Shown here piece by piece: positions 5,829 through 17,747 of a stretch of 20,217 nucleotides of DNA; within the stretch, counting starts at the first letter, position 1; each line of letters starts with the position of its first letter. Origin of the DNA: Candidatus Diapherotrites archaeon CG10_big_fil_rev_8_21_14_0_10_31_34. Its GTDB lineage: Archaea > Iainarchaeota > Iainarchaeia > Iainarchaeales > 1-14-0-10-31-34. The position numbers and the translations under genes were made by a program. The notes under the pieces were generated by a model. That model had not been told where the DNA came from. It saw only the letters and a list, made by a program, of their open reading frames with translations, and did no database searches. The stretch is taken from NCBI GenBank assembly GCA_002763225.1, contig PFAI01000037.1, forward strand, positions 2,531 through 22,747, in the 5' to 3' direction.

Positions 5829-5878
5829 CAGTGCGAGTTTATCTCGCACATTTTGTTAAACCTTTTCTTAAAAGGTTT
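5829..5878. repeat. Double-hairpin extragenic element, copy A
   Basis: CA-GTGCGAG-TTTAT-CTCGCAC (stem-loop 5831-5849), linker ATTTTGTT, then AAACCTTTT-CTT-AAAAGGTTT (5858-5878). Same architecture as 6991-7041. Confidence 0.75.
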
Positions 5879-5935: not shown

Positions 5936-6901
5936 ATGAATGAAGATGGTTTGCCTTGGGTAGAAAAATACAGGCCAAAAAAACTAAATGAAGTTGTAGG
6001 CCAAGGAGAAATAACTAAAAGGCTTGAAAGTTATGTTCAAAAAAAGTCTCTGCCTAATTTATTGTTTTCCGGTCCGGCAGGAATCGGAAAAACAAGTTCT
6101 GCTGTTTCTCTGGCAAACGAATTATATGACAAAGGATTTGAAAGAAATTTTTTAGAGCTAAACGCAAGCGATGAAAGAGGAATAGATGTAGTAAGAAAAA
6201 CAATCAAAGATTTTGCCAGAACAATGGCTTTTGACACAGACTTTAAAATAATTTTTTTAGATGAATCAGATGCATTAACTGCTGACGCACAACAGGCTTT
6301 AAGGAGAACAATGGAAAAATTCACTAAAACCTGCAGGTTTGTTTTAAGCTGTAATTATTCTTCAAGGCTGATTGAACCACTGCAAAGCAGATGTGTTATT
6401 TTCAGATTTAAGCCATTAAATTCAAAAGACATCGAAAACAGGTTAATAGAAATAGCAAAAATTGAAGGACTGGAATTAGAAAAAGATTCATTAAAAGCAA
6501 TAACTTATGTTGCTCAAGGAGATTTAAGAAAAGCAATTAATGTATTGCAGGCAAGCTCTGCAGTTGACTCAAAAATAAAATCCAATACAATTTTTACTGT
6601 GAGTTCCAAAGCAAAACCAGAAGAAATAAAAGAATTAATTAAACTGTCTTTAGCAAAAAAGTTTTTGGAAGCAAGAGAAAAACTTGATGTATTGCTTTAT
6701 GAATATGGAATGAGCGGAGAAGATTTAGTATTACAGTTATACAGGGAATTAATTGACATGCCTGAAGAAGAATTAAGTGGTAAAACAAAAATTGAATTGC
6801 TTGACAAAATAGGCGAAACAAATTTCAGAATAGTTGAAGGAGCAAACGAAAGAATCCAATTAGAAGCATTAATTGCTCAGTTCATGAAATACACTAAATA
6901 A
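5936..6901 (+). CDS. rfcS: Replication factor C small subunit
   Basis: RFC boxes: PWVEKYRP, Walker A GPAGIGKT, LELNASDERGIDVVR, Walker B IIFLDESD, AQQALRRTME, SRC arginine finger, GDLRKAIN. No intein. Confidence 0.98.
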   Translation: MNEDGLPWVEKYRPKKLNEVVGQGEITKRLESYVQKKSLPNLLFSGPAGIGKTSSAVSLANELYDKGFERNFLELNASDERGIDVVRKTIKDFARTMAFDTDFKIIFLDESDALTADAQQALRRTMEKFTKTCRFVLSCNYSSRLIEPLQSRCVIFRFKPLNSKDIENRLIEIAKIEGLELEKDSLKAITYVAQGDLRKAINVLQASSAVDSKIKSNTIFTVSSKAKPEEIKELIKLSLAKKFLEAREKLDVLLYEYGMSGEDLVLQLYRELIDMPEEELSGKTKIELLDKIGETNFRIVEGANERIQLEALIAQFMKYTK

Positions 6902-7063
6902 TTAAAACAGCTGGGCTGAAAGCCCTGCACCGGCACTCGCGGACGGAACCACGAAAGCTCAGTTCATGAAATACACTAAATAAATTTAATCAGTACGGCT
7001 TTACGCCGTACGTTTTGGCAACTTGCCTTTTGGAAAAGGCAGTTTATGAAATATACTAAATAA
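6875..7063 (+). repeat. Three direct copies of the rfcS 3' end separated by 55- and 56-nt structured spacers
   Basis: GCTCAGTTCATGAAATACACTAAATAA at 6875-6901 (the gene end) and identically at 6957-6983; CAGTTTATGAAATATACTAAATAA at 7040-7063 (22/24 match). Confidence 0.95.
6991..7041. repeat. Double-hairpin extragenic element, copy B
   Basis: CA-GTACGGC-TTTAC-GCCGTAC (6993-7011), linker GTTTTGGCAACT, then TGCCTTT-TGGA-AAAGGCA (7024-7041). Confidence 0.75.
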
Positions 7064-7112
7064 AACCAAAACCAAAAAAATAAATAACACTAGTTCTATT
7101 ATATTCAGTAGT

Positions 7113-7445
7113 ATGAGTTTACCGGCAGCATTAATGAGCATACTTGTTCCTGGAACAGGGCAGGTTTACCACAGAAAATATGTTGAAGGCGCAATAATAT
7201 TTTTTTTGTGGGGGGTGTGGATTATTTTAACAACTTATTTCATTAAACTTGAATTAGTTTTTGTTTTAGTTGGCTGGCTGTTTTTTGTTGCATTCAGTTC
7301 AATTGATGCAATACTGTTTGAAAGCAAAAAAGTAAGAGAAGAAGACATCCAAATAAAAGAATTTGAAGAAATGGAAGAATCCACAGAAAAAAGAAAAAAA
7401 TTCAAGGAAATAGATGACAAAGTCAGAGAAGCATTAAATGACTAA
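7113..7445 (+). CDS. Small membrane protein with a PGxGQxY motif and a charged C-terminal tail
   Basis: AALMSILVPGTGQVY followed by two hydrophobic helices and an E/K-rich tail; 110 aa. Confidence 0.75.
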   Translation: MSLPAALMSILVPGTGQVYHRKYVEGAIIFFLWGVWIILTTYFIKLELVFVLVGWLFFVAFSSIDAILFESKKVREEDIQIKEFEEMEESTEKRKKFKEIDDKVREALND

Positions 7446-8671
7446 AAATAATCAGAAATTTTCTTTTGATTTAACGAGTCGAGCAGTTTGCTTTCTCTTT
7501 TAAATAAATTTATGGGTGTTTCAAGCTTTCTTCCAATGTAAGTTAATGCCAAGTCTAAATCAAAAAATCTTAATGGTTTCTTTTTTAGAGCATTTCTGAC
7601 AGTCTCACGAATAAGCCAAACTCCTAAACTTAAAGAATATTCTTGACCAATTTCCCTGAAAACAATTACTTTTGACTGCCTTCTTTTTTCAAACAAAAAT
7701 TCAGTTACAGCTAAACGCGAGGCATAATATGCTCCTGAAACATCTGAAGCATAATTTTTTCTTCCTTTAAAGGATTCAAAATCGGCCATAATTTTTGTTT
7801 CTTTTCCCTGCACCCAAACCGAATCAGCTTTCCATGCTTCAAGCTGTTCAAAAGACCAAGAGCCAGGCAAAAGCAAAACAAAAAAATGATTATCCAGATA
7901 ATTTGCCTGAAATAACTGAATAAAATCTGTTTCCTTAAAATACTTTATTTTTTCAATTAATTTTTTTGAAATAGTGTCATCAACTGCAGTAATGCTCCAT
8001 CTGGTTGGAACTAACTTTCTTTTCTTTTTTAATCCAAGCAGGCCGGCAGACAAAATTTTTTGAAGAGAATTAACTGAAACATTTGAGTCATATAATTCTT
8101 CTAATCCTTTAGTTGAAAGCAAATCAGTGTCAGAAGTAATATAATCAACTTTTTTTGGAATCTTTGGGTTTTCGTTTAAAGAAAACTTTTTTAATTCAGC
8201 TTTAGGGCCAGAAGGAACAGAAAGAAAATCAAAAGAAATCTTGTCAGACAAAATTTTGTTTAATTCAACTGAAACATTTAAAGGAGAAACAGCCATAACA
8301 GATTCCTGAATTTCAGATAATTCTCTTGAAGGATTTAAAGCAGAAAAAACATCAGTTTTTTTTCCTGACTGAATTAATGATTCACGCATTTCAATTATTT
8401 TCTCTGAAGAAAAACCAAACCATTTTTCTGGTTCATCGAAAAACTCTATTTCCTGAGAAAAAAAAGGAGAAGACAAAGGAGCAATAGAAACATTTGGATA
8501 ATTATTCCAAGAAACAAATAAACCAGGGGGAGAACTTCCTTCAAAAGAATTGTTTTTTATTTCAGAAAAAATTTTTGATTTCCGTTTATGACTGTCTAAA
8601 ATTTTGCAGGAAGTTAAACCGCATAAAAGACGGCCTTTGCATGAAATGCATTCAATTCCATTTACTTTCAT
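7442..8671 (-). CDS. nreA: Nre family archaeal DNA repair protein (PCNA-interacting)
   Basis: True start is M70 of the track ORF (MKVNGIECISCKGRLLCGLTSC, a Cys cluster). Conserved GSSPPGLFV, RKLVPTRWSITAVD, GAYYASRLAV and LGVWLIRE; C-terminal PIP box QKKISDYF; 409 aa. Confidence 0.93.
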   Translation of the reverse strand: MKVNGIECISCKGRLLCGLTSCKILDSHKRKSKIFSEIKNNSFEGSSPPGLFVSWNNYPNVSIAPLSSPFFSQEIEFFDEPEKWFGFSSEKIIEMRESLIQSGKKTDVFSALNPSRELSEIQESVMAVSPLNVSVELNKILSDKISFDFLSVPSGPKAELKKFSLNENPKIPKKVDYITSDTDLLSTKGLEELYDSNVSVNSLQKILSAGLLGLKKKRKLVPTRWSITAVDDTISKKLIEKIKYFKETDFIQLFQANYLDNHFFVLLLPGSWSFEQLEAWKADSVWVQGKETKIMADFESFKGRKNYASDVSGAYYASRLAVTEFLFEKRRQSKVIVFREIGQEYSLSLGVWLIRETVRNALKKKPLRFFDLDLALTYIGRKLETPINLFKRESKLLDSLNQKKISDYF

Positions 8672-8694
8672 AGTAAAGAAGAGACAAATAAGGG

Positions 8695-8702
8695 TTATAA
8701 AA
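8695..8702. promoter_or_regulatory. Bidirectional TATA box shared by nreA and thiN
   Basis: Palindromic TTATAA centred in a 52-bp divergent intergenic region, about 26-27 nt from both ATGs. Confidence 0.6.
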
Positions 8703-8723
8703 AGTTTGAATGAACTTCTTGTT

Positions 8724-9362
8724 ATGAGTAAAAGAGCAGCATTAATCTGCAATGGAAGCATTAACACAAAATTCTTGTATTCATTTATTTCAGAAAACGA
8801 TTTTATTATTGCAGTGGACGGCGGAGCAAACAAACTGGCAAAAACAAAATTTACGCCAAATCTGATTATAGGAGACATGGATTCAATTTCAAAGAATTCA
8901 TTAAAAAAATTCAGGAAAATAAAACAAATAAAGTTTCCGGTAGAAAAAAATGAAATTGATTTAGAGTTAGCAATAGATTACTGTATTAAAAAAAAATTCA
9001 AAGAAATAATTATTCTTGGAGCAATCGGAACAAGAGCAGACATGACTTTAACAAATGTTTTTTTGCTTGCACAAATTCCAAAAAAAATCAAGACAAAAAT
9101 CATTCACGAAAACCAGGAAATTTATTTGATTCCCAAAAAAAAGTTTTTAATTCAGGGAATACCAGGAGAAAAAATTTCTTTGTTTCCAATTAAAGGAAAT
9201 GTAAAAGGATTGAATTTAAAAGGATTCAAATATGAACTAAAAAACCATGAATTAAAGTTTGGATTAGGAATTGGTTTAAGCAATGAATTTAAAAACAAAA
9301 AAGCTTGGATTACGACAAAAGACGGATTATTGCTGTGCGTTCACTTTAGGAAATGGTTCTGA
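8724..9362 (+). CDS. thiN: Thiamine pyrophosphokinase
   Basis: True start is M41 of the track ORF (MSKRAALICNG). TPK motifs IAVDGGAN, LIIGDMDS, EKNEIDLELA, GAIGTRAD, GFKYEL and GLSNE; 212 aa. Confidence 0.93.
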   Translation: MSKRAALICNGSINTKFLYSFISENDFIIAVDGGANKLAKTKFTPNLIIGDMDSISKNSLKKFRKIKQIKFPVEKNEIDLELAIDYCIKKKFKEIIILGAIGTRADMTLTNVFLLAQIPKKIKTKIIHENQEIYLIPKKKFLIQGIPGEKISLFPIKGNVKGLNLKGFKYELKNHELKFGLGIGLSNEFKNKKAWITTKDGLLLCVHFRKWF

Positions 9363-15195: not shown

Positions 15196-15420
15196 AGAAA
15201 AGGAAAAAAGTTATAATAAAATAAAACAAATTAAAACAAAAACTAATTAAAAAAAAGAAATCACAAAAAAACAAAAAAAACACGAAAAAAACTTAAAACA
15301 AAAAAAACTGATTCAAAAAAAAAGAAAACACAAAAAAACACACAAAAATAGCAAAAAAGAAAATAAACAAAAAAAACTAAAATAAAAAAAACTCAAAAAA
15401 AACTGATTCAAAAAAATTAA
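15196..15420 (+). repeat. A-rich low-complexity intergenic tract with a 21-nt direct repeat
   Basis: 15241-15420 contains 132 A and 7 G in 180 nt (hand count). AAAAAAACTGATTCAAAAAAA occurs at 15301-15321 and 15396-15416. Confidence 0.85.
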
Positions 15421-15479
15421 ATTTGTTTTTTTCTTTAGATAAATTTAAATAAACTAAAGGGGTTGTGTTATAGGAGAAT

Positions 15480-17747
15480 ATGGCTGACTACTTAAAGGAT
15501 TTAGTTAAAAAAGCTAAACGAATTAAAACAGAAGAAGAAGCAGTTAAACCTAAACCAAAAGAAATTACAGTGGATACAGAAGAACTGAGAAAAAAACTTA
15601 TTTTAGAGAAAAGACAAAAAGAAAAACTAAGAAAACAGTCATTAGAAGATGAATTAAGACAAAAAGTTCCTCCAAAAAAAGAAATAGAAGAAGAAACTGA
15701 AAACCCGGAAGAAAAAGAAAAAAGAGATGTTTCAAAAGTAGAAAAAGAATTAGAGTCACTGGAAAAAAAAGAAATTGATTCTTATGGAGAAGTAAAAATA
15801 TACAAGGTTTCGGGAAAAAGTCTGCCTTATTATGTTATTCCAGTAACAAAACCGACTTTAGGGGAAAGAACTGTTATTAACACAATCAAAGAAGCCGCAA
15901 CAAGATTGATTTCAATTGCACCTTACAGAATAAGGGACCCTGAACAAAGAAGAACTGTTTACAAGCAAAGAATAATTGAAATACTTCAGGCTTCAACTGA
16001 ACTAAATATTCCTGAAAGAAGATTTAATTTTTATGCTGAATCAGTTGTAAGAGAAATGGTTGGATATGGATTAATTGATCCATTAATCAGAGACGACAAA
16101 CTAGAAGAAATAATGGTTATTGGGCCAAAAAAACCTGTTTATGTTTTTCACAGACAATACGAAATGATGATGACAAACATAGAGTTTTTTGGCGACAACG
16201 AAATAGAAGACTTAATTAACAAAATTGGAAGAGAAGTCGGAAGAAGAGTTGATATTTCTACTCCATTACTGGATGCAAGATTAGCTGATGGTTCAAGAGT
16301 AAATGCCACTATTCCTCCTGCATCAATTTCTGGTTCAAGTTTAACAATCAGAAAATTCAGGGCAGACCCTTACTCAATAGTTGACTTAATAAATTATGGT
16401 TCATTTGACACTAAAAGTGCTGCATTTCTATGGTTATGTGTTGAAGGTTTAGGAGTAAAGCCGGCAAACATTTTGATTACAGGAGGAACAGGATCAGGAA
16501 AAACAACTACACTAAATGTTCTGGCTTCATTTATTCCTGAAAGAGAAAGAATTGTAACAATAGAAGACACAGCAGAATTACATTTACCTTTAGAACACAT
16601 AATTAGTTTGGAGTCAAGACCTCCAGGATTAGAAGGAACAGGAGAAATAACAATAGATATTTTAACAAAAAATTCTTTGAGAATGCGTCCAGACAGAGTA
16701 ATAGTAGGAGAAGTAAGACATGACGAAGCATTCACACTTTTTACAGCTATGAACACAGGGCATGATGGTATGGTAGTAGGAAAAACTTTAATCCAGTTAA
16801 GTGAAGGAAACAAAATTAAGATTGAAGAAATTGCAAAAAAAGCGTTTAATGGAAGAACTACAAAAAAAGAAAAAGACTATGAAACAATTGAACTGAAAGA
16901 AAAAATTATGGTACCTTCTTTCAATAAAAATACATTAAAAATTGAAGAAAAAAAAATAACTCATGTTTTTAAGAGGAAAAAAAAGCAAAAAATAATGAAA
17001 ATTAAGTTGTTGAATGGAAAAGAACTTCATTTAACAAAAGACCATCCTATTTACAGGATTGAAAATGGAATAAAAGAAATTAATTCTGAACAGGCAAGAA
17101 AAGAGGATTGTATTTTAGTTAAGCCAGAAACAAACCATAATTATTTAAGTAATTTAATTCAAGGGCAAACAACAAACCAAATTCAGATTTTAGTTGAATC
17201 AGATTTAAGGTTTGAAAAAATAGTTTCAGTTGAAGAAGAAGAATTTGGTGGATGGATGTATGATTTGACTGTAGAAGACAATCACAACTACATTGCAAAT
17301 GGAGTGATTATTTCAAATTGTTTGGGTACAATTCACGCTAACTCTCCGCAAGAAACCCTTGTAAGGGTTACCAGTCCTCCGATGAATGTTCCTGAAGTAA
17401 TGCTTTCAGGATTAGATTTAATTGTAGTTGAACACAGAATTCATGACAAAAAGAAAGGAACCATCAGAAGAATAACTGAAATTGCAGAAGTAACAGGAGT
17501 ATTAGAAAACAAAACATCTACACAGACATTATTTGAAAGAGATGCTTTAAGGGATAAATTAACCAGAAGCAATGCTGAAAGCAGTTATGTTAAAAATTTA
17601 ATGAAGTTCACTGGATATAATGCAAAACAAATAGAAAAAGAATTAACTGACAGAGAAAATTTTTTGAAAAAATTAATTGACAAAAAAATTCATAATATGG
17701 ATGAAGTGGCTGAAGCAATGAGAGATTTTTTGAATAGAAGAACGTGA
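15480..17747 (+). CDS. Type IV/Tad pilus assembly ATPase (CpaF/TadA/VirB11, KlbA-like) precursor containing an intein
   Basis: LDARLADGSRVNA, LTIRKF, Walker A GGTGSGKT, Asp box TIEDTAEL, LRMRPDRVIVGEVR, and His box AMNTGHDG|CLGTIHAN split by an insertion. TATA at 15444-15451; AGGAGA at 15472-15477. Confidence 0.95.
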   Translation: MADYLKDLVKKAKRIKTEEEAVKPKPKEITVDTEELRKKLILEKRQKEKLRKQSLEDELRQKVPPKKEIEEETENPEEKEKRDVSKVEKELESLEKKEIDSYGEVKIYKVSGKSLPYYVIPVTKPTLGERTVINTIKEAATRLISIAPYRIRDPEQRRTVYKQRIIEILQASTELNIPERRFNFYAESVVREMVGYGLIDPLIRDDKLEEIMVIGPKKPVYVFHRQYEMMMTNIEFFGDNEIEDLINKIGREVGRRVDISTPLLDARLADGSRVNATIPPASISGSSLTIRKFRADPYSIVDLINYGSFDTKSAAFLWLCVEGLGVKPANILITGGTGSGKTTTLNVLASFIPERERIVTIEDTAELHLPLEHIISLESRPPGLEGTGEITIDILTKNSLRMRPDRVIVGEVRHDEAFTLFTAMNTGHDGMVVGKTLIQLSEGNKIKIEEIAKKAFNGRTTKKEKDYETIELKEKIMVPSFNKNTLKIEEKKITHVFKRKKKQKIMKIKLLNGKELHLTKDHPIYRIENGIKEINSEQARKEDCILVKPETNHNYLSNLIQGQTTNQIQILVESDLRFEKIVSVEEEEFGGWMYDLTVEDNHNYIANGVIISNCLGTIHANSPQETLVRVTSPPMNVPEVMLSGLDLIVVEHRIHDKKKGTIRRITEIAEVTGVLENKTSTQTLFERDALRDKLTRSNAESSYVKNLMKFTGYNAKQIEKELTDRENFLKKLIDKKIHNMDEVAEAMRDFLNRRT
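16770..17318 (+). mobile_element. Mini-intein (183 aa, no homing endonuclease), KlbA-type
   Basis: Inserted between TGHDG and CLGT. Block B LTKDHPIY, block F WMYDLTVEDNHNYIA, block G NGVIISN, Cys+1; first residue Met. Confidence 0.93.

Follow-up and report, generated by a model that had tools for sequence, protein, structure and literature searches.

Two members of a dispersed double-hairpin repeat very probably inserted in succession at the rfcS stop of an Iainarchaeota genome

INTRODUCTION

Prophages (at tRNA genes and icd) and casposons (at tRNA genes and aEF-2) insert near a conserved 3ʹ end and leave a spare copy of that end downstream, with silent differences between the two copies. The repeat family described here is alike in all three respects, whereas it has no linked integrase or Cas1, its targets have no common sequence, and gene starts and mid-gene sites are used too. 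MITEs are non-autonomous, short, and present in many copies, as this family is, but its unit is polar and has no terminal inverted repeats, and its duplication is long and variable. In the way it works, the element is like REP/BIME sequences and mitochondrial hairpin elements, yet by the tests that we ran it belongs to none of the REP, MITE, casposon, or integrative element classes.

Bacterial REP, BIME, and REPIN sequences, which have RAYT partners, are short palindromes found between genes; they carry a conserved motif at the base of the hairpin, form inverted doublets and mosaic clusters, and are amplified in particular lineages (PMC8266576, PMC3337134). The rfcS family resembles them in these features, with only A and G invariant at its hairpin foot, and differs in being archaeal, in having no GTAG and a second hairpin at a fixed 8 nt, and in its long variable target duplications and the lack of any RAYT found. 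The double-hairpin elements of Allomyces mitochondria, the GC clusters of yeast, and the tRNA-flanking palindromes of Neurospora are likewise very small, GC-rich hairpin modules that are polymorphic for presence and absence, merge and shuffle, associate with tRNA genes, and have no known mobilizer (PMC4478555, PMC2800124); this is a likeness by description, not by sequence. The same sources give flanking repeats of 2–3 nt for GC clusters and none for the Allomyces elements (PMC4478555, PMC2800124), against 14–47 nt in the rfcS family, which moreover preserves gene termini and resides on an archaeal chromosome. Restriction-modification insertions with long target duplication also have long variable direct repeats (one, of 46 bp, overlaps a gene 3ʹ end) and no transposase, but those inserts carry nuclease genes and measure kilobases (PMC2853133), while the element here is about 30–60 nt, non-coding, and one dispersed family. 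The spread of REP-like repeats and of mitochondrial hairpin repeats has no settled explanation in two accounts of them (PMC8266576, PMC4478555), and archaeal tRNA intron gain is called open in a 2026 Asgard preprint (10.64898/2026.10.13.758758).

Here, we analyzed a stretch of 20,217 nt from Candidatus Diapherotrites archaeon CG10_big_fil_rev_8_21_14_0_10_31_34 (hereafter the window; C28:2531–22747 of genome G000, whose assembly of 1.04 Mb is 81% complete) and compared it with related genomes, including the five others of the genus (G001–G005). The genomes compared are 81–96% complete.

RESULTS AND DISCUSSION

The end of rfcS is triplicated around two double-hairpin cassettes

A preliminary description of this DNA had reported that the end of rfcS, with its stop, recurs twice downstream around two structured spacers, and the triplication was reproduced in every detail (Table 1). 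When the region 6860–7080 was shuffled 500 times, the longest repeat at a spacing of 25–150 nt was 11 nt, compared with the 27 nt observed. Among 935 gene ends scanned in G000, rfcS was the sole exact 27-nt gene-end copy with a spacer, and the single higher-scoring match was a tandem copy without one. Both mismatches in repeat copy 3 fall at synonymous positions. rfcS is 80–86% identical to its orthologues in the genus, and the 110-aa gene downstream is a syntenic anchor in all nine family genomes.

Table 1. Features of the rfcS region, numbered from the first letter of the window
Feature	Position	Strand	Basis
Third repeat-family member in the window, upstream of rfcS	5829..5878	+	Covariance-model match
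rfcS, replication factor C small subunit, intact host gene	5936..6901	+	ORF, 321 aa; Pfam Rep_fac_C and AAA
Repeat copy 1, working rfcS end, 8 codons and stop	6875..6901	+	Repeat comparison
AT-rich lead of cassette 1; varies between copies and species	6902..6907	+	Sequence comparison
Cassette 1 core: CA, hairpin 1, 8-nt linker, hairpin 2	6908..6954	+	Covariance-model match, folds
Repeat copy 2, 27/27 identical to copy 1	6957..6983	+	Period 82
AT-rich lead of cassette 2; alignable to G005 and G001 leads	6984..6990	+	Alignment
Cassette 2: CA, hairpin 1, T-rich linker, T/A-tract hairpin 2	6991..7044	+	Covariance-model match
Repeat copy 3, oldest spare rfcS end	7040..7063	+	24 nt, 22/24, period 80
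110-aa membrane-protein gene downstream of rfcS	7113..7445	+	ORF; DUF5683 match weak, under cut-off

Unitigs from three sequencing runs spanned the array with no differences and no gaps (X2, 6304–7500; X4, 6410–7168; X8, 6119–7093), so the earlier concern about an assembly artefact fell away; X2 may be the source run, and all three are from groundwater of the same year. The unitig of a fourth run begins inside repeat copy 1. No excised, empty, or cassette-skipping form was present among the 12 joints listed for the four runs, from contigs, which drop rare variants.

Both hairpin pairs fold as proposed earlier. In cassette 1, hairpin 1 occupies 6910–6928 with one T-T mismatch and hairpin 2 occupies 6937–6954 (6-bp stem, 6-nt loop, one mismatch); in cassette 2, hairpin 1 (6993–7011) is perfect and hairpin 2 (7024–7041) can be extended to 7044. 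As plus-strand RNA, only spacer 2 folds clearly better than shuffles (z = −2.45, and −1.18 for spacer 1). Other parts of the preliminary description needed revision. Spacer 1 is GC-rich as stated (58%), but spacer 2 is not strongly so (43%, compared with 30% for the window). The layout given for spacer 2 holds for its hairpins and not for its border, since hairpin 2 extends about 5 nt into the third gene-end copy, the first 5 nt of which overlap the end of the covariance-model match. The AT-rich lead, which had been taken as part of the element, is not conserved and looks like diverged post-stop sequence or junction filler.

A scan of 6700–7300 against Rfam gave nothing significant (best E 2.7, far under gathering scores), and a terminator scan gave one match, on the minus strand only and within chance. 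The third family member in the window lies between a divergent 189-aa gene and rfcS, with no flanking duplication that exceeds chance, and the 170 nt that precede rfcS in G001, G002, and G005 showed no counterpart.

The spacers belong to a dispersed repeat family

Each spacer matches near-identical copies elsewhere in G000 far better than it matches the other. Positions 6907–6932 of cassette 1 are identical to C16:27920–27945 (26/26), and cassette 2 matches C47:19986 in hairpin 1 (20/20) and C55:3831 in hairpin 2 (27/28). Cassette 1 scores 51 bits with the covariance model, of whose training alignment this copy is itself a part. These distant copies bear directly on the idea that the array is a decayed local tandem triplication, which the preliminary description had kept as its own counter-reading, or an assembly artefact. 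The two spacers do align slightly better than shuffles (5 of 500 were as good), and true tandem expansions of modules occur elsewhere (L083); the near-identical distant copies, the related but different alleles of four species, and the unchanged unitigs of three runs refute this reading and leave it a negligible chance.

The family unit is polar: [C/T]A, a hairpin with a 7-bp stem and a 5-nt loop, an 8-nt linker, and a second hairpin. A hairpin scan of G000 returned 44 hairpin-1 sites, 38 of them outside called ORFs. With the fetched loci included, a second hairpin was called at 108 of 158 hairpin-1 sites, and of these 108 units, 66 have an 8-nt linker and 22 a 7-nt one. In 50 aligned units, invariance is limited to A and G at the foot of the hairpin and to the C that closes it; the invariant G pairs within the stem, and the tetranucleotide GTAG is not present. 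Twelve of the 13 stem pairs change on both sides, a covariation that is inflated because the rows were chosen for pairing. The two ends of a unit are different hairpins and form no terminal inverted repeats; back-to-back doublets, arrays, and mosaic clusters of modules occur in G000 and its relatives, the doublets being symmetric and the rfcS cassettes single units.

A strict pattern was found in all six genus genomes, in none of the three other family genomes, and in 3 of 142 others. The covariance model gave from 13 to at least 41 matches in each of the six genus genomes; elsewhere in the order, 24 of the 144 further genomes had 1–8 matches. The weaker model matches that were read have the same layout: some border tRNAs, others sit within tRNA introns, and one separates copies of a gene end. 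Judged by these matches outside the genus, the repeat family is order-wide and amplified in the genus, and a genus-only range, which the strict pattern had given, is overturned. An exact-pattern scan of a collection of genomes from 185,579 species yielded 44 matches, mostly in archaeal MAGs and several in Ca. Iainarchaeum, the others being scattered single bacterial matches. No element match was found in viral contigs in three scans, and no RNA data set was listed as containing the stretch.

Cassettes are present, absent, or different at orthologous sites

Cassettes were found at 4 of the 32 rfcS ends examined, all four in the genus; the ends examined outside it were all empty. A comparison of related loci for alleles with zero, one, or two cassettes, which the preliminary description had outlined, recovered all three: the end is empty in two genus genomes (G003 and G004), holds one cassette in three, and holds two in G000. 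The empty and singly filled alleles indicate that the cassettes are insertions. In G005, the single cassette is the same as cassette 2 except for the loop of hairpin 2, with a 24-nt duplication; in G001, it is a composite that has the hairpin-2 junction in common with cassette 2; and in G002, it is of a different type, with an exact 43-nt duplication. Cassette 1 is present at this site in G000 only. That cassette 2 is common to species and cassette 1 is not supports addition at the gene-proximal side, in agreement with the polarity suggested earlier. The rfcS trees are poorly resolved, and cassette 2 may go back to one ancestral insertion or to three parallel ones, both of which fit.

Other sites behave similarly. 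The end of the polyprenyl-synthase gene is filled with a cassette in three of six genus genomes and that of rtcB in one of nine family genomes, and at many orthologous sites the cassette type differs between species. A back-to-back doublet forms an anticodon-loop intron of tRNA-Gly in G004 (L090, C70), and the G000 gene (C25:19800) has no intron. Gene-end duplications with such cassettes were thus not confined to rfcS, as had been anticipated, and occur for example at the polyprenyl-synthase, rtcB, and tRNA ends. With the empty and single alleles and the spacer copies elsewhere, it is very probable that the two rfcS spacers are copies of a polar and non-autonomous double-hairpin repeat that is dispersed in Iainarchaeota, and that they entered at the rfcS stop in succession, each leaving a long direct repeat of the gene end, much as the preliminary description had pictured. 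It had also called the locus a mini-array, and we see no dedicated array but rather a side effect of repeated insertion at a site that tolerates it; in contrast to a CRISPR-like array, its spacers are genomic repeats and its repeat is not fixed across sites.

Several further arrangements involve the same modules. In L095 (G004 C89), a cassette separates the 3ʹ end of one tRNA from the shortened 3ʹ end of another. In G000 (C31:24241–24725, L161), a tRNA-Glu 3ʹ end is present in triplicate with element modules between the copies, and a 16-nt piece of the 5ʹ half of the same tRNA is duplicated around an intron module. In G005 (C3, L184/L103), a cassette duplicates the start of nrdB, with a strong Shine-Dalgarno sequence on the CAG side of the cassette; these class I ribonucleotide reductase genes have no DNA-level match in the other eight family genomes.

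The element has one fixed end and a long, variable target duplication

Target duplications range from 14 to 47 nt and occur at gene ends, gene starts, and tRNAs and in frame inside genes: 27 and 24 nt at rfcS in G000, about 40 nt at rtcB, 22–23 nt at tRNA ends, and 47 and 18 nt within genes. The repeated sequence differs at every site, and the target genes are unrelated and have no common target sequence. A flanking repeat above the null maximum was found at only 6 of 58 hairpin-1 sites in G000, and two of these six repeat element modules.

After hairpin 2, tRNA 3ʹ-end signatures lie within −3 to +3 nt in 15 of 17 cases and tRNA 5ʹ-end signatures within 0–1 nt in four of six, and no tRNA-end signature was found on the CAG side among the 108 units. 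Hairpin 2 is the fixed end of the element; by eye, it also adjoins start codons and provides stop codons. Among the terminus duplications that were examined (rfcS in four genomes, polyprenyl synthase, the starts or ends of aIF-1A and nrdB, rtcB, and several tRNA ends), the working copy is on the CAG side and a cut-short spare adjoins hairpin 2. The in-frame inserts inside genes (L191, L223), with exact duplications of 47 and 18 nt, both have no hairpin 1, which indicates that the CAG end is the variable end; as such inserts need no replacement end, the duplication is made on insertion.

Differences between gene ends and spare copies are mostly silent

Across five coding pairs, 8 of 9 differences between gene and spare were synonymous, where 3.98 were expected (P = 0.007, post hoc, with junction-proximal bases excluded). 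Two further pairs, outside this test, give a mixed picture: the rtcB pair has two silent changes and a Gly-to-Trp change in the spare that is absent from all relatives, and the coding part of the G045 pair differs in the stop codon only. At rfcS, the G001 pair has an Arg/Lys difference, and the two G002 copies are identical. All three rfcS end copies of G000 carry a Thr codon found in no other genus genome. The polyprenyl-synthase spare has an Ile codon, as in all five other genus genomes, followed by ancestral intergenic sequence. Between G000 and G005, cassette 2 differs in one loop only, yet 23 of 73 four-fold sites of rfcS differ. The G000-specific Thr codon in all copies and the nearly unchanged cassette 2 point to conversion, cycling, or recent transfer.

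Such data could also arise from replacement-end integration or homing. Here a cassette would move from strain to strain joined to a functional gene end, either on a minicircle or within a conversion tract, and would displace the resident end to the downstream side; LAGLIDADG endonucleases might make the cut. The silent bias, the polyprenyl-synthase spare with its genus-wide codon and ancestral flank, and the G000-specific Thr codon in the spare rfcS end all favor this reading. So do the presence of LAGLIDADG_3 in all nine genomes, with some ORFs reaching tRNA 5ʹ ends, and the crossing of yeast GC clusters between species by recombination in conserved flanks, for which help from intron endonucleases has been proposed (PMC4478555). 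It can create neither the first duplication at a new site nor the exact duplications inside genes; the Gly-to-Trp change in the rtcB spare, the Arg/Lys difference in G001, and the identity of copies 1 and 2 in G000 and of both copies in G002 also count against it. We hold it to be rather unlikely.

LAGLIDADG proteins were looked at more widely. LAGLIDADG_3 has 3–28 matches per genome in the nine genomes, and in several family genomes, free-standing ORFs of 275–377 aa stop at the 5ʹ end of a tRNA gene or within one (G000 C42, C47, and C9; L281, L128, L254, L275, and L286). However, G006–G008, with 6–17 LAGLIDADG matches, have one element-model match each, which likewise weighs against homing; as these proteins are plentiful where the element is rare too, they are a lead only.

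No enzyme class searched tracks the element

The preliminary description had named Y1/RAYT transposases, reverse transcriptases, and tyrosine recombinases as possible partners of the element, and none of them, nor any other class searched, tracks it. Y1_Tnp (PF01797) has no match in G000 and four matches in one of the five other genus genomes (G004), which are IS200-like with flanking hairpins different from those of the element. The RAYT model (NF047646, REP_Tyr_transpos) has no match above cut-off in nine genomes. RVT_1 was found in one of six genus genomes, as two ORFs, located on 2-kb contigs, whose products resemble group II intron proteins (family assignment by eye). Profile searches of this kind can miss diverged HUH or RT proteins; a motif scan of 1085 G000 ORFs, crude for serine recombinases, found no convincing HUH, RT, or serine recombinase either. 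Cas1 (PF01867) was not found in G000 (81% complete), the sole genome searched for it, the IS110 DEDD transposase (PF02371) in none of nine genomes, and GIY-YIG in none of the five searched. Tyrosine recombinases occur in all six genus genomes, mostly away from elements: XerA-like loci have zero or one distant module, and island integrases are at tRNAs. The nine ORFs with modules on both sides are housekeeping genes, a Fic protein, or spurious frames, and the 14 proteins scanned from genes beside low-copy matches in other families have no mobility domain. TnpB (PF07282) is found in three of three other family genomes and in none of the six in the genus, and a scheme of RNA-guided self-avoidance, with the spare copy as a TnpB guide, was dropped for this last reason.

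These searches bear on two further explanations. In one, the element is REP/REPIN-like and is mobilized by a Y1 transposase of the HUH type, which may have diverged beyond detection, have been lost, or be provided by a visiting element. The IS200/IS605 type of chemistry is not known to leave a target duplication. The Y1 and RAYT results above, like the tetranucleotide of the element, which is not GTAG, also do not agree with such a transposase. Only the IS200-type subclass has been seen in Archaea (10.1101/279083). On the other hand, the AG conserved at the base of the 7-bp hairpin, the back-to-back doublets, and the mosaic clusters would fit it, recalling the REPs preceded by GTAG and the REPINs (PMC8266576, PMC3337134), and REPs can outlast the loss of the transposase gene (10.1101/279083). 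We regard this explanation as decidedly unlikely.

The other is SINE-like retroposition, in which RNAs from pre-tRNA leaders and introns would be reverse-transcribed at a nick by target priming. Its footprint agrees with what is seen (a fixed 3ʹ end, shortened 5ʹ ends, and variable duplications), copies lie in leaders and introns of tRNAs, which would be set free by processing, and for the GC clusters of yeast and the hairpins of Allomyces a spread through RNA has been proposed (PMC4478555, PMC2800124). But hairpin 2 meets tRNAs at either of their ends, which makes half of these copies antisense, no Rfam family fits, and the only RVT_1 matches are the two intron-like ORFs of a single genus genome; we give retroposition a slim chance.

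Copy-in by strand realignment as the preferred reading

One fixed end, one variable end, a duplication of 14–47 nt, a 5-nt junction overlap, and no dedicated enzyme are best read as copy-in. Quite possibly, though we stop short of calling it probable, the element moves by microhomology-guided copy-in through strand realignment, carried out by host repair or replication proteins or an unrecognized nickase, followed by loss and regain. A free 3ʹ end would arise at the target and anneal over a few nucleotides to a single-stranded donor, at the hairpin-2 end of the latter, a step for which junctions were read by eye and not quantified. Copying would then run toward the CAG end for a variable distance, matching the hairpin-2-only, full, and composite units observed, and the strand would rejoin 14–47 nt back, matching the variable duplication. 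Selection would retain events that keep a whole terminus on the CAG side, a gene-boundary stop, or an intact frame. Finally, the turnover evident between species may proceed by loss of cassettes between repeats, regain, and swapping through gene conversion, which would keep copies lineage-matched and biased to silent differences.

Copy-in is favored by the zero, one, and two cassette alleles of rfcS, the polymorphism at polyprenyl synthase and rtcB, the variable duplication length, the in-frame inserts inside genes, hairpin 2 as the fixed end, the 8-nt linker in 66 of 108 units, the different cassette types at orthologous sites, and the conservation of cassette 2. Against it stand the many copies (most of them) with no detectable duplication, the lack of an excised or empty joint among those listed, and the silent bias, which is unexpected under a one-off duplication followed by decay. 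In addition, the conserved AG at the hairpin foot and the fixed 8-nt linker suggest a specific recognizing protein and not generic repair.

The rfcS repeat is a real and apparently undescribed non-autonomous element; a literature search, which fell short of most subscription papers and supplements, found no description of the family or of gene-end-duplicating hairpins in DPANN. Alleles with zero, one, and two cassettes are documented here for a DPANN mobile element some 50 bases long, and its footprint of a long variable duplication, one fixed end, and preserved termini fits no transposase class found in these genomes. The essential replication gene rfcS survives both insertions because its last codons are copied as the element inserts. 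The element also accounts for the spare gene ends and broken assemblies beside tRNAs in these MAGs, and the family ties the spread of hairpin repeats and the arrival of tRNA introns to dated, comparable sites. It is conceivable, if on the unlikely side, that it stands for a separate category of minimal mobile DNA among archaea with small genomes, one that needs no gene of its own, copies in with hairpin 2 first and a 14–47-nt duplication, cycles at conserved gene termini by exchanging working ends, and seeds new tRNA introns. If so, it would offer a traceable DNA route for archaeal tRNA intron gain.

Other repeats and inserts near the locus and in related genomes

The IS200-like Y1 family of G004 (L035–L037) has its own terminal hairpins and at least three copies, one of them in a shortened tRNA-linked integrase. 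In G000, C33:3241–3520 holds an unrelated tandem array of 57–58-nt repeats, and in G003 an 18-nt unit is repeated about five times directly before the rfcS start (L008). Around rfcS itself, an archaeal Nre DNA-repair gene (7442–8878, minus strand) converges on the rfcS operon, and the rfcS/Nre neighborhood was found again in several other families. In 4 of 41 genomes (G004 C15, G006 C1, G015 C6, and G016 C1), rfcS ORFs of 776–1010 aa have split matches, which suggests inteins in RfcS. Farther along the window, about 280 nt after thrS (15196–15480) consist of extremely A-rich, low-complexity intergenic repeats, followed by a gene for a VirB11/CpaF-like ATPase of 755 aa (15480–17747) with two TadB/C-like genes downstream; read by eye, the ATPase has an apparent intein-like insert after its AMNTGH motif.
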